Shown: positions 9,236 through 45,875 of the stretch, piece by piece
How positions within the stretch are numbered: the first letter of the stretch is position 1
Layout of the letters: every line of letters begins with the position of its first letter
Translations under genes and position numbers: made by a program
Assembly (NCBI GenBank): GCA_905235385.1
Contig: CAJOLB010000001.1
Span: 1 to 50,228, forward strand
Reading direction: 5' to 3'
Source of the DNA: an uncultured Alphaproteobacteria bacterium
GTDB taxonomy: Bacteria; Pseudomonadota; Alphaproteobacteria; RF32; CAG-239
Length of the DNA: 50,228 nucleotides
Notes under the pieces: model-generated
The model's database searches: none
What the model was told of the DNA's origin: nothing
Seen by the model: only the letters and a program-made list of their open reading frames with translations

Positions 9236-9266
9236 GAGTGCACTAGAATATGCTCCGGTATCTAAT

Positions 9267-9294
9267 AAATAGGTTCCTTTTTTCTTTACGATTC
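9267..9294 (-). repeat. Solo partial copy of the 42-bp AA-centred palindromic site
   Basis: Minus strand GAATCGTAAAGAAAAAAGG-AA-CCTATTT matches the copies at 19521, 19617 and 45832. Confidence 0.75.
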
Positions 9295-18022: not shown

Positions 18023-18838
18023 CTAAAATTGCTCCAAAACCTCAGCCAATTCTTTGGCTTTGTCAATGTTAAACATGGCTGTTTGATGGAAACCTGCGTC
18101 CACATGAACAACTTCTCCGGTGATAGCCGAACCTAAATCAGAAAGCAAAGCAAGCGCCGTATTACCAACCTCATCTTGCGTTACATTGCGGCGAAGCGGC
18201 GTATTCAGTTCATTGTATTTCAAAATTTTCTTAAAATCGCCGATGCCTGATGCCGCCAAAGTTTTAATCGGACCGGCTGAAATGGCATTAACACGGACGC
18301 CTTGCTTGCCTAAATCTGCAGCAGCATATCTGACCGATGCTTCCAAAGCGGCTTTTGCCACACCCATAATATTATAATTCGGAAGCGACCTTTCAGCGCC
18401 GATATACGTTAAAGTAAGTACAGCTCCACCCTCATTTAAAATAGGCGAAGCGTTGCGGCAGGCCTCTAAAAAAGAATAACACGAAATGTGCATTGTGTTT
18501 AAGAAGTTATCAAGCGTTGTATCAATGGTCCGACCTTTCAGCTGATCTTTATCCGAAAAGGCAATAGCGTGCACAACAAAATCAATTTTACCCCATTTTT
18601 CAAAAAGTTCTTTAAAACAATTTTCAACGGAAGCCCCGTCTGTGACATCGCATTTAATAAGCATTGTTTCGTTGGCAAGTTGCTCAGATAGAGGTTTTAC
18701 TCTTTTTTCTAAAGCCTCATTTTGGTATGAAATAGCTATTTTAGCCCCTTCTCTATCCAAAGCCTTAGCTATTCCCCAAGCGATTGAGTGATCATTGGCC
18801 AGCCCCATAATGAGCCCCTTTTTACCTTCCATCAACAT
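18023..18838 (-). CDS. fabI: Enoyl-ACP reductase
   Basis: GLANDHSIAWGIA, YNIMGVAKAALE, SAGPIKTLAASGI. Confidence 0.96.
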   Translation of the reverse strand: MLMEGKKGLIMGLANDHSIAWGIAKALDREGAKIAISYQNEALEKRVKPLSEQLANETMLIKCDVTDGASVENCFKELFEKWGKIDFVVHAIAFSDKDQLKGRTIDTTLDNFLNTMHISCYSFLEACRNASPILNEGGAVLTLTYIGAERSLPNYNIMGVAKAALEASVRYAAADLGKQGVRVNAISAGPIKTLAASGIGDFKKILKYNELNTPLRRNVTQDEVGNTALALLSDLGSAITGEVVHVDAGFHQTAMFNIDKAKELAEVLEQF

Positions 18839-18918
18839 ATAAACAAATCCTTTTAATATTAACAGATAGCTTTTTATTAGCCGATTTTATAAAAAAAGTA
18901 AACTGTTTTTATATCTTT

Positions 18919-19509
18919 TTAAGACCATATAAAAAAGAAATGACAAGTTGAAGCGTCATCACAAACGCTGCAAAGCTCTTGCATACGATTAATTGTTAAA
19001 GTTTTAAGAGCATTCCTTGTAACATAATTCGTATGTTGACCGCTGACATTTTCGTTGTATTTAACAAACAGCGTTTCTAATAAGAAATCAGCCCTTGGAA
19101 CAGCCTGTTTATAAAGGTTAACACAAATATCATAGGCATCTTTTTTAATCTGAACTCTCAAACCAAAATAGTACGCACAAGTTTCACAGGAACGGTTTCG
19201 ATAGAGTAAAACTTGATTTTGAAAAGAATCATAAACAAAGGCGCTATTGTCTTTAACCATTTCTTTTGGAATAACCCCAAGAGAATTGAAAAAATTTTTT
19301 GCATAGTATGGAACAGCGCTTAAATCAATGCCCTGAGAATGCAAAACAGCAGAATTATCCAAGATATACCCGATTTGTTCGGCTTGTTTGTTTAAACGAT
19401 GTTGATACATGGCTTTTGAGTATCCGGCTAAACCACCGGCGGATAAAACCCCGATAATCGCTAGAACGCCCAGCATTTCAACCATACTTCTACCCTTTTG
19501 ATGCATCAT
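18919..19509 (-). CDS. Type IV pilin/pseudopilin-like protein
   Basis: Class III signal QKG|RSMVEMLGVLAIIGVLSAGGLAGY (G-1, E+5) and a Cys-rich C-terminal domain. AGGGGAG RBS. Confidence 0.88.
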   Translation of the reverse strand: MMHQKGRSMVEMLGVLAIIGVLSAGGLAGYSKAMYQHRLNKQAEQIGYILDNSAVLHSQGIDLSAVPYYAKNFFNSLGVIPKEMVKDNSAFVYDSFQNQVLLYRNRSCETCAYYFGLRVQIKKDAYDICVNLYKQAVPRADFLLETLFVKYNENVSGQHTNYVTRNALKTLTINRMQELCSVCDDASTCHFFFIWS

Positions 19510-19520
19510 AACTCCCCTTT

Positions 19521-19658
19521 AAAAGTGTAAAGAAAAAATGAACCTATTTTTTTTACACTTTTTAAAATTTCATTTTAATTGATTCTTAAGGGAAATTTTA
19601 GTACAATAATCTTAAAGGAATCGTAAAAATTTAAGGTTCCTTTTTTCTTTACACTTTG
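19521..19658. repeat. Inverted pair of 42-bp palindromic sites (candidate invertible promoter segment)
   Basis: 19522-19545 matches the reverse complement of 19634-19657 at 23/24 positions. Each site is a dyad centred on AA/TT (19541-42 and 19637-38). Confidence 0.85.
19575..19607 (+). promoter_or_regulatory. sigma70-type promoter with overlapping CtrA-like box, inside the inverted pair
   Basis: TTGATT(19579)-N17-TACAAT(19602); TTAA-N7-TTAA at 19575-19589. Confidence 0.65.
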
Positions 19659-19768
19659 AGCAATATTTATTCATTTTTAAATAATATTTCACATCAATCA
19701 TTTTTTATCTTGACCATTTGTTACTTTTAAGATACAAAACTCACATAAAGTAACAAAGGAGAAATATT

Positions 19769-21943
19769 TTGAAAAATTTTGTGAGATTTTGCCTTCGGAC
19801 ATTTTTTTATGTTTTTAAGGTCAGATGTCAGTTTCAGTTCGATTTAAAAAAACTCCCTAAAAAAGGTGTATATGTTTCGAACCACGTATCATATTTGGAC
19901 CCTGTTTTGTTATTTGCCTTTCTGCCAGGAAATCCGATCTTTGCCTTAAACGGACACCTATATCGTCGCCGTTTTATTCGTTTTTTGATGAAAACGGCAG
20001 ATATCATGGAATATAATCCCATTGAACCGGCAGATTTAAAAGAATTAATTAATAAAGTTAACGACAATCGTTTAGTTGTTATTTTTGCTGAAGGGCGTAT
20101 TACTGAAACAGGCGGTTTAATGAAAATTTATGAAGCCCCCGGACTTTTGGCGGATAAAACTCAAGCGCCAATTATTCCGATTTGGATCGAGGGTCCTCAA
20201 TACAGCTATTTTTCAAAAACAAAAGACAAATTACCGCATCGCCCGATGCCTAAAATGTTGATTACGGTCGGCGCACCCAAACCTTTGAAACTAAAAGATG
20301 AGTTGCGCCGTCAGCGTGACCACTTAAGCAATGAAATTTATCATATTTTAACGGATATGCAGTTCAAAATTACATATAATCCGGACATTTCAATTTTTGC
20401 ACAGCTTGTCAAAACTTCTAAAGTTTATTCTAAGAAAGGCTTTTTCTTTAAGCGCCCGATGGTTATTGAAGATATCAACCGCAAGCCTTTGAGCTATAAA
20501 GACTTATTATTAAGGGTTTATTTGCTTGGCAAGTTTTTTAAGAAAAAAGCTGCCCATTTTGAACATGTCGGTTTGTTGCTTCCGAACACGATCGCAGCAG
20601 TTGCAACATTTTTAGGATTATCCGCTTATGAGCGTGTGCCGGTGATGCTGAACTTTTCGGTTGGTGCAAAAAATATGCTCTCCATGTGCAGAACGGCTCA
20701 GGTTAAATTTGTGATTACCTCATTAACCTTTATCCGCACAGCTAAAATGGAACCTGTTGTCGAGCTTTTAAAGTCAAGTGGTATTGAAGTGTTTTATCTC
20801 GAAAGTCTAGCTAAAAAACTTGGAATCATCAGCAAACTCGGCGCTCTTTTACGATATAAAACAAAGCGCGTACCGCACAGACACGGTGGAAACAGAAAGG
20901 CAGCTATTTTGTTTACTTCCGGTTCTGAAGGTGCTCCAAAAGCTGTTGTTTTAAGCCATGCTAACATTATTTCAAACATCAAACAGGTTACAACTGTTGA
21001 AACAATAAACATGAAAGATTTGGTGTTTAATGCTATGCCTATGTTTCATAGTTTTGGCTTAACCATAGGTACTCTGTTTCCGCTCTTGGAAGGTGGGCGT
21101 GTATTCCTTTACCCCTCACCTTTGCACTATCGTGTGATTGCTGAGTTAATTTATGAACTTGGTGCAACGATTCTTTTTGGAACAGATACCTTTTTCAGAG
21201 GTTACGGTCGTATTGCGCACCCTTATGATTTCTATAACGTTCGTTTTATGTATGCCGGTGCTGAAGCTGTTAAATTAGATACAAGAAACTTATTTATGGA
21301 ACATATGGGCGTTCGCATTATGGAAGCCTACGGTGTAACAGAATGTGCCCCGTTTGTTGCGGCAAATAATCACGTGTATAACCGCTTTGGCTCGATCGGT
21401 AAAATCGTGCCGGGTATTGAATATAAAGTTGAACCTGTTCCGGGTATAGAAAAAGGCGGTGAACTCGTCGTTAAAGGACCGAACATTATGCTCGGATACA
21501 TTATGCCTGACAATCCCGGAGTACTTGTGCCCTTAGAGGGCGGATGGTATCATACGGGTGATGTGGTTGAAATTGATGAAATCGGATATGTCTATATTAA
21601 AGACCGTATCAAACGCTTTGCTAAAATCGGCGGCGAAATGGTTTCTTTAAATGCCGTTCAGGATATGGTTATCAGCGCTTATGAATGGATGGGACCTGAT
21701 TTCAGCTACGGCATTGTTGCCGTCCCACACGAAAGCAAGGGTGAACAAATTGTTTTGGTTACCAACAACATGCAGGTCAAGCAAGAAGTTTTGCACGATT
21801 ATATCAAAAACAACGGTATGTCCGAACTCTTCTTGCCGCGAACGATTTTGTATCATGAGAAAATCCCCGCTTTCCTAACAGGTAAAACCGATAATGTTAC
21901 CTTGAAAAAAGAAGTGATGGAAGAACTCGGATTAAATAAATAA
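19769..21943 (+). CDS. aas: Bifunctional acyltransferase / acyl-ACP synthetase
   Basis: NHVSYLD, FAEGR, FTSGSEGAPK, EAYGVTE, WYHTGD, KIGGEMVSL. Confidence 0.92.
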   Translation: MKNFVRFCLRTFFYVFKVRCQFQFDLKKLPKKGVYVSNHVSYLDPVLLFAFLPGNPIFALNGHLYRRRFIRFLMKTADIMEYNPIEPADLKELINKVNDNRLVVIFAEGRITETGGLMKIYEAPGLLADKTQAPIIPIWIEGPQYSYFSKTKDKLPHRPMPKMLITVGAPKPLKLKDELRRQRDHLSNEIYHILTDMQFKITYNPDISIFAQLVKTSKVYSKKGFFFKRPMVIEDINRKPLSYKDLLLRVYLLGKFFKKKAAHFEHVGLLLPNTIAAVATFLGLSAYERVPVMLNFSVGAKNMLSMCRTAQVKFVITSLTFIRTAKMEPVVELLKSSGIEVFYLESLAKKLGIISKLGALLRYKTKRVPHRHGGNRKAAILFTSGSEGAPKAVVLSHANIISNIKQVTTVETINMKDLVFNAMPMFHSFGLTIGTLFPLLEGGRVFLYPSPLHYRVIAELIYELGATILFGTDTFFRGYGRIAHPYDFYNVRFMYAGAEAVKLDTRNLFMEHMGVRIMEAYGVTECAPFVAANNHVYNRFGSIGKIVPGIEYKVEPVPGIEKGGELVVKGPNIMLGYIMPDNPGVLVPLEGGWYHTGDVVEIDEIGYVYIKDRIKRFAKIGGEMVSLNAVQDMVISAYEWMGPDFSYGIVAVPHESKGEQIVLVTNNMQVKQEVLHDYIKNNGMSELFLPRTILYHEKIPAFLTGKTDNVTLKKEVMEELGLNK

Positions 21944-45832: not shown

Positions 45833-45875
45833 AAAGTGTAAAGAAAAAAGAAACCTTAAATTTTTACGATTCCTT
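45833..45875 (+). repeat. Solo copy of the AA-centred palindromic site
   Basis: 42/43 identity to the reverse complement of 19615-19657. Confidence 0.92.

Follow-up and report, generated by a model that had tools for sequence, protein, structure and literature searches.

Regulons in which inversion of short DNA segments reorients promoters are known, and those in which a master invertase flips many promoters are best known from Bacteroides. In the Mpi regulon of Bacteroides fragilis, numerous promoters scattered over the genome, which are bounded by inverted repeats and control surface structures, are acted on in trans by one small serine recombinase. Here we describe a similar arrangement around a 138-bp element at positions 19521-19658 of a 50,228-nt stretch of DNA, called the window (NCBI GenBank assembly GCA_905235385.1, contig CAJOLB010000001.1, positions 1 to 50,228 of the forward strand), from an uncultured alphaproteobacterium of the RF32/CAG-239 lineage. 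The element adjoins a type IVb-like pilin gene and carries a candidate promoter between two inverted sites. We consider it probable that the element belongs to an active, multi-locus, Mpi-like promoter inverton regulon, and that the window copy is OFF for its pilin because the promoter points towards the divergent aas-like gene.

The present system departs from the B. fragilis regulon in several respects. Its host is an uncultured alphaproteobacterium and not a member of Bacteroidota, its targets are type IVb-like pilin and YD-repeat genes where those in B. fragilis are capsule operons, and its element combines a candidate promoter of the -35/-10 sigma-70 type with a 94-bp segment and 42-bp dyads. 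Dyad sites with an asymmetric 2-bp centre and partner sites in inverted polarity are shared with Hin/hix and Gin/gix. In those systems, however, the recombinase is encoded in or beside an invertible segment of 1-3 kb, the sites are 26 bp long and an enhancer bound by Fis is needed, whereas here the recombinase gene is unlinked, there is no room in the 94-bp segment and the conserved dyad extends over 30-42 bp. The term hix-like, used for the sites in a first-pass annotation made from the sequence of the window, therefore suits the dyad and its asymmetric 2-bp centre and is otherwise a loose label, given dyads of about 30-42 bp and a recombinase that is not adjacent.

Two other groups of systems act on pili. 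Inversion of the Escherichia coli fimS promoter by FimB and FimE sets a pilus subunit gene ON or OFF, as proposed here. There, tyrosine recombinases act at one locus only, on a 314-bp segment with 9-bp repeats, and the pilus is a chaperone-usher fimbria, whereas the present case involves a candidate serine recombinase, many loci and a type IV pilin fold. Moraxella Piv and the R64 shufflon vary type IV pilins by site-specific inversion; they invert coding segments and thereby alter the pilin C-terminus, whereas here the promoter would flip and whole alternative pilin genes would be chosen. In a catalogue of 10,983 invertons, more than 75% have a length below 300 bases (PMC11602134), and Mpi-family recombinases and pilins are among the genes enriched near programmed inversions (PMC9881135).

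Our literature search found no such system in RF32/CAG-239 Alphaproteobacteria and no promoter-inverton repertoire for type IV pilins; the supplementary catalogues of PMC11602134 and PMC11892184 may list similar elements. Promoter inverton regulons as such being known, the present one is distinguished by its very small 94-bp segment, the long dyads at fixed spacing, the pilin and YD-repeat targets and the host. Mpi-type logic would operate in an uncultured gut alphaproteobacterium that has a reduced genome (1.3 Mb) and a relative among rumen-derived assemblies. Provided that they are active, the switches offer a handle on adhesin variation in such organisms and a compact system, with one 202-aa enzyme, for the study of serine invertase synapsis between sites 96 bp apart.

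The element and its copies across the genome

The element consists of two 42-bp dyads in inverted polarity, and both were found in the window sequence exactly as the first-pass annotation had quoted them, including the asymmetric AA centres. The proximal dyad (19521-19562), of the type that lies behind the promoter, reads AAAAGTGTAAAGAAAAAATG-AA-CCTATTTTTTTTACACTTTT with the central AA at 19541-42, a register shared with all 30 dyads of the family. The distal dyad (19617-19658), of the type that lies ahead of the promoter, reads CAAAGTGTAAAGAAAAAAGG-AA-CCTTAAATTTTTACGATTCC on the minus strand, its centre being TT at 19637-38 on the plus strand. The earlier count of 23 matches in 24 positions for the outer parts is obtained when 19522-19545 is aligned with the reverse complement of 19634-19657, and the parts of 24 nt as printed give 22 of 24. 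The two centres are 96 bp apart and enclose a predicted invertible segment of 94 bp (19543-19636), which comprises the inner half-sites and the promoter and whose limits are drawn from breakpoints at paralogous and orthologous loci. The sigma-70-type promoter candidate TTGATT-N17-TACAAT was located at 19579-19607 on the plus strand, where it heads away from the pilin gene and towards aas, as had been proposed. The 16-mer AAGTGTAAAGAAAAAA, which forms the core of the outer half-site, occurs five times in the window with up to 2 mismatches, against 0.35 expected, and none of 100 shuffled sequences reached five.

A scan of the whole genome for further site pairs, suggested in the first-pass annotation, gave a large family. 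The genome holding the window (G000; 1.33 Mb, 89 contigs, 39% GC) carries 15 complete elements on 12 contigs, together with solo and truncated dyads. All 15 complete elements are 138-139 bp long, and in every one of them, as in the window copy, inverted repeats surround a short intergenic segment. The dyad consensus is GTAAA-N7-GG-AA-CC-N7-TTTAC. For comparison, each of the 30 dyads was written as outer half, centre and inner half. The AA centre was present in all 30 and inverted within each pair, one being displaced by a 1-nt insertion. On the inner side of the centre 29 of the 30 dyads have CC; the outer side varies (GG, CG, CC, TG or AC).

Two subfamilies were distinguished by their interiors, TTGATT-N17-TAnnnT in subfamily A and TTGACT-N17-TATGAT or TATTAT in subfamily B, the latter with 41-bp perfect inverted repeats. 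Identity over the whole element ranges from 70 to 92% among copies, and elements of both subfamilies are only 70-78% identical to the window element, with the -35/-10 pair on the same relative strand in both. In each of the 15 elements the -35/-10 motif is confined to one strand and leads to an inner half of the GGAATCGTAAA type. The promoter motif carries weight because it is conserved in all 15 copies, and not through its significance in a single copy. The fact that the AA centre is kept in all 30 dyads and the length of 138-139 bp in all elements, despite identities of only 70-92%, indicates continuing selection on recombination competence.

A gene start adjoins 14 of the 15 complete elements. 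Eight elements have pilin-like neighbours (C1, C3, C4:8256, C4:33559, C4:46540, C5, C22 and C44), and the promoter faces the pilin in one of them (C4:46540, the ON copy) and away from it in the other seven (OFF). The remaining elements adjoin genes for signal-peptide proteins rich in YD-type repeats, of which the C17 gene matches RHS_repeat. Here the promoter is directed towards the adjoining gene in two cases, C17 and the right-hand gene of C39, and away from it at C11, C12, C25, C57 and the left-hand gene of C39. On C39 (L038, 138-2364) two YD-repeat protein genes diverge from either side of a B-type element, and a single flip would move expression from one to the other.

A scan of sequence collections with the inner half-site gave few matches, on 7 short contigs from metagenomes and on 5 contigs that belong to a single related assembly. 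For annotation and assembly of these genomes it should be borne in mind that many contigs end within elements. The dyads were also considered as RNA signals. A search of Rfam at E <= 1 gave only a chance match to a Plasmodium small RNA (sRNA), and the dyads folded as RNA no better than shuffled sequences (z -1.8 to +0.2). A riboswitch, terminator or sRNA reading was dropped on account of the missing Rfam family and the shuffle-level folds.

Opposite orientations between homologous flanks

To compare paralogous loci, the elements were oriented by their promoters and 150-bp flanks were aligned. The flank ahead of the promoter at C4:46540 matched flanks that lie behind the promoter at two other loci, C5:18817 (97.3% over 150 bp) and C4:33559 (96% over 75 bp). 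In the same way, the flank ahead of the promoter at C39:21393 matched the flank behind it at C57:7160 (94.7% over 150 bp). In these flipped paralogues the gene-side flank is retained with its 24-bp outer half-site, recognizable by an ACGG signature, and so is the far outer half-site, while all the sequence between the dyad centres aligns as the reverse complement. The interior of C4:46540 differs from the reverse complement of the C4:26336 interior by one mismatch. All 15 elements were then flipped in silico and the resulting 30 junctions were searched against the genome; full-length matches of at least 93% came from four of these searches, all involving the two paralogous pairs, and one of them was 100% identical over 111 nt.

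A third case came from two related genomes. Contig C195 of G005 and contig C11 of G007 are collinear with 94.5% identity over 2361 nt, except that a 108-nt element region lies on the opposite strand at 95.4% identity. About 190 columns on the left are identical through the dyad, and identity resumes at the other dyad. Flipped paralogous or related loci, on which the first-pass annotation had made its proposal depend, therefore exist as two pairs within the genome and one pair between relatives. The 94.5% identity of these flipped orthologues, with about 190 identical bases beside the element, points to a recent flip. As a separate observation, G005 and G007 are assemblies of two different species, yet the left flank of about 190 nt is 100% identical and the right flank has several substitutions; a recent transfer, or a contig shared between bins, is possible.

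The bases around the centres define the point of exchange. Immediately outside the centre, the gene-side dyad has CG in the ON copy and CC in the OFF copies, and the far dyad has GG in both states, whereas the inner halves (TTAAAT... and TATTTT...) change sides between the states. The exchange can therefore be placed within AACCT, of which the invariant AA is a part. This agrees with the crossover at the asymmetric AA that had been predicted from the window alone, and the dyad centres are very probably site-specific recombination breakpoints. Serine recombinases of the Hin/Gin/resolvase family make a 2-bp staggered cut, and the exchange pattern seen here is as such a cut requires. A tyrosine recombinase using GGAACC as a 6-bp overlap was also considered and was rejected, as the first two bases differ between the partner sites in at least 7 of the 15 elements and the three PF00589 matches of the genome, described below, are taken to be XerC and XerD or have Xer-type best matches.

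These alignments bear on three other explanations of the element. Correia-type miniature inverted-repeat transposable elements (MITEs) are about 140 bp long and have terminal inverted repeats, an internal promoter and many copies. An element of this kind, with an outward promoter, might have been inserted in either orientation beside genes; its size, terminal inverted repeats and internal promoter would fit, as would at least 15 dispersed copies with additional solo ends and the many contig ends inside copies. Insertion of a whole element, however, would flip everything, whereas here the outer half-sites stay with the flank and the interior alone flips. In three presence/absence cases (C54 and C52 of G000 against G005, and C2 against G005 and G007) gene and element were gained or lost together, unlike a Correia element, and 14 of 15 complete copies adjoin a gene start. 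No transposase is linked to the element, and target-site duplications were not systematically searched. We regard a MITE origin of the orientations as quite improbable.

The same alignments argue against a reading of the dyads as operators. A dimeric or tetrameric repressor could bind both dyads and loop the 96 bp around a fixed promoter with no inversion at all, and two dyads about nine helical turns apart around a promoter, at strictly kept spacing, are what such looping would call for. It would leave unexplained, however, why reverse-complemented interiors lie between homologous flanks, why the asymmetric AA is invariant and always in inverted polarity, and why in most copies the promoter is directed away from the gene whose ribosome-binding site (RBS) adjoins the element. 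We give this explanation very little credence.

Finally, the orientation differences might be assembly artefacts at inverted repeats and the likeness of the sites due to chance. The genomes under comparison are without exception metagenome assemblies, and perfect inverted repeats of 41 bp occur in the B-type elements. Against this stand the motif enrichment far above shuffles and the three independent cases of opposite orientation, two from paralogous pairs in G000 and one from the G005/G007 pair. In addition, the k87 in RUG803 contig names may denote an 87-base assembly word, longer than the 24-41-bp repeats; if it does, real reads would fix the junctions. An artefact of this kind is hardly credible.

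A further comparison concerns the interiors themselves. A metagenome contig (L031, positions 1-150) corresponds to C3:15486-15593 of G000 on the rplJ side, and has a B-type interior where G000 has an A-type one. This difference hints at a swap of interiors between loci.

The serine recombinase and the proposed switch

Every match to PF00239 and PF00589 lies on a contig other than that of the window, in keeping with the earlier statement that the window holds no recombinase gene. PF00239 has two matches in G000, a 545-aa protein on C18 and a 202-aa protein on C48. The best NCBIfam matches of the former are large serine recombinases (CcrB, XisF), and it is taken to be phage- or island-borne. The C48 protein has a Resolvase domain with the motif YIRVST, which contains the predicted catalytic serine, and a C-terminal helix-turn-helix; going by product wording, a PpiC/SurA-like gene and dnaA lie next to its gene. 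Among NCBIfam families the protein is matched best by NF009949, 'master DNA invertase Mpi family' (248.8 bits, E 3.7e-74, residues 1-197 of 202), and its closest solved structure is chain 4m6f, 'DNA-invertase' (E 5e-12), which we take to be Gin. The Mpi-like invertase encoded elsewhere, as the first-pass annotation had supposed, thus has a counterpart in the one small serine recombinase of the genome. A single enzyme on C48 faces many unlinked sites, the 15 complete elements lying on 12 other contigs. Three matches to PF00589 were found. Two are open frames on C9 and C5, with lengths of 312 and 317 aa, that we take for XerC and XerD; the third, on C12, is a fragment of 157 aa with Xer-type best matches.

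Homologues of the C48 recombinase (E <= 1e-10) occur in 20 of 41 relatives, with identities of 98% in G005, 76% in G002, 70% in G003 and at most 53% in the others. Homologues of about 70% identity are numerous in uncultured Alphaproteobacteria, under the source names 'recombinase family protein' or 'invertase'. The elements themselves were found in G000, in G005 (15 matches) and in G007 (13 matches, at a genome completeness of 59%), while G001 and G008 gave one weak match each; none of the five genomes G001, G002, G003, G006 and G008 showed the dyad pattern. Since the C48 protein is the sole candidate, is assigned to this family and is present together with the elements in G000 and G005, it presumably acts on the dyads.

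From these sequence comparisons the following mechanism can be proposed. The Mpi-type recombinase of C48 would occupy the two dyads, cleave them at the central AA and turn the interior round, so that the inner half-sites are swapped and the promoter is reversed. After inversion the promoter would read through a distal-type dyad into the pilin RBS, giving a 5' leader of about 60 nt. With eight pilin-like genes (one ON, seven OFF) and several genes for YD-repeat secreted proteins under such control, the outcome would be variable expression of surface proteins, and the flip switches probably let the bacterium vary its surface. Switching would be frequent and reversible, and the motif would act as the working promoter.

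Several observations weigh against an active regulon of this kind. Judging from the Hin and Gin systems, a loop of 94 bp is very short for synapsis by a serine invertase. The C48 recombinase scores below the curated cut-off of NF009949 (248.8 against 272 bits), and G002 and G003 carry 76% and 70% identical orthologues of it, yet no such dyads. In a single copy the promoter motif is at chance level, with 3 sites in 601 bp against 2.8 +/- 1.9 in shuffles. For the window locus itself, the search for flipped junctions in the G000 assembly gave no match, and no flipped copy was obtained from the relatives G003, G005, G007 and G008 or from the strain represented in sequencing run X3. Only one of four comparisons between genomes or samples with both dyads intact is flipped, these being C4:8256 in G000 and G005, the window and the X3 strain (to 19581 only), L029 and L032, and G005:C195 and G007:C11; two more locus comparisons involve remnants that lack one dyad. 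The orientation differences moreover come from paralogues or from separate genomes and not from one population.

The last point is also what would be expected if the sites were real recombination sites at which inversions are rare evolutionary events, the switches being now essentially static and giving no phase variation. One orientation is common to 7 of 8 pilin-linked copies, and decayed copies exist (solo dyads, the broken C5 pilin and remnants in G007), which would suit such a state. On the other hand, the AA centre and the length have been kept although the elements have diverged to 70-92% identity, the recombinase gene remains intact, with 98% identity to its counterpart in G005, and the nearly identical flanks of the flipped G005/G007 orthologues speak for a recent flip. 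We judge static switches to be unlikely, and favour a regulon that is still active.

This reading can be extended, more tentatively, into a fuller one that we consider possible, though as a whole doubtful. One Mpi-like invertase would run about eight alternative pilins and the YD-repeat proteins through unusually small invertons of 94 bp; the fixed 96-bp spacing of the sites would force a pre-bent synapse; pilins would mostly be ON one at a time, a form of antigenic variation that works through promoter choice; and the same sites would mediate deletions and exchange of interiors between loci. The recombinase would then shape which surface genes a strain carries, besides which of them are expressed.

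The pilin genes, the window locus and minor observations

The would-be target of the switch in the window is an open reading frame (ORF) of 196 aa on the minus strand (18919-19509), encoding a type IVb-like pilin. Its RBS, AAGGGGAG, lies at 19512-19519 and is separated from the proximal dyad by one base. The N-terminus resembles a class III signal, and the N_methyl motif scored 18.4 bits, below the cut-off of 21.2. An AlphaFold2 model (mean predicted local distance difference test, pLDDT, 85.1; predicted template modelling score, pTM, 0.78) was compared with the PDB, and its best matches were type IVb pilins of the TcpA and CofA types, with template modelling (TM) scores of 0.60-0.66. TcpA in the toxin-coregulated pilus (TCP) filament was matched with E 1.8e-5 and TM 0.64/0.66, and the type IVb pilus of enterotoxigenic E. 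coli (ETEC) with TM 0.60. The genome encodes a prepilin peptidase (Peptidase_A24) and three T2SSE-family ATPases. The features of type IV pilins are thus present: the protein has a class III signal-like N-terminus, an alpha-1 helix that is hydrophobic and carries Glu5, and a pilin fold, and the peptidase is encoded in the genome.

Among the eight pilin paralogues the N-terminal 40 aa or so are invariant, with the helix GRSMVEMLGVLAIIGVLS, and overall identity is only 28-39%; the C-terminal domains are variable and contain conserved Cys residues. The pilin family is large in the genus. In the 1.5-Mb genome G002, 37 pilin-like matches were counted, some of them in tandem arrays, a very large repertoire for the genome size. 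On C5 of G000 (L017, 1669-2415), the OFF paralogue of the sole ON pilin-like gene is split into ORFs of 70 and 138 aa and is probably a pseudogene.

On the other side of the element lies the divergent aas-like gene (19769-21943, plus strand), with acyltransferase and AMP-binding domains, which is no part of the switch. A separate promoter candidate for this gene, TTGACC-N17-TACAAA, had been proposed earlier and was read at 19710-19738 on the plus strand, outside the element. This promoter region is retained in relatives without the element, as TTGACC in G005 and G003 and as TTGACTTGACC in G008. In G003 and G008, aas directly adjoins fabI, and pilin and element are both absent. In G005 (L099, contig C112, 1400-1500) about 65 nt of the pilin 3' end are followed by 13 other bases and then by the outer half of the distal dyad from its centre on. 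The absence of the cassette from G003 and G008, together with the remnant in G005, indicates that pilin and element are a lineage-specific gain. G007 is masked at this locus.

Sequencing runs X1, X2, X3 and X7 were examined over 18700-20500 as Logan contigs, in which minor variants are lost and repeats cause breaks. The deletion seen in G005 recurs in a contig of run X7, which jumps from 18983 to 19637. In both G005 and this contig, one end of the deletion is at the crossover point, the centre of the distal dyad, which suggests that the sites may also mediate deletions. From run X3, a 4706-nt contig that is about 86% alike contains the pilin gene, the first site and the initial 19 nt of the interior, oriented as in the window. 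Among the listed contigs of run X1, none crosses the interior 19571-19627 free of mismatches, the stops being at 19510, 19570 and 19628; these breaks are uninformative on heterogeneity because the element is a repeat. An X7 contig that is 85% alike, from a relative or a paralogue, contains an 'opposite strands' joint at 19523/19618 (depth 7.5, side 33), which is not safely interpretable.

Remnants of the element family were found elsewhere in the window. A solo dyad with neither partner nor interior matches the pattern at 45834-45875 on the plus strand, and a degenerate solo half-dyad with 3 mismatches to the dyad pattern lies at 9260-9293 on the minus strand. Further solo dyads that lack a partner and an interior are located at C8:23243, C15:16913, C89:69 and C20:64 of G000. 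Such solo dyads may be leftovers of deletions between sites.

Two features upstream of pilin-like genes were recorded in addition. Three pilin-like genes (L014 at C4:46400-46540 of G000, L017 and L020) have in common, between element and start codon, a leader of about 65 nt with the inverted repeat GATCCCTTGACG...CGAGGGATGAC, which recurs inside the N-terminal extension of a 220-aa protein. In relatives without dyad elements, a motif of about 110 nt, CCCCGA..TCGGGGAGCC..GATGTnCAnGATTTT..TCTAAAG..GTCAT..CTCCCCGA, is found 60-200 nt upstream of pilin-like genes (L065, L069 and L079 in G002, L075 in G006). It matched no Rfam family at the gathering score. Some of its stems appear to vary in compensatory fashion between copies, and the motif could be a new cis-regulatory RNA or a switch of another type.

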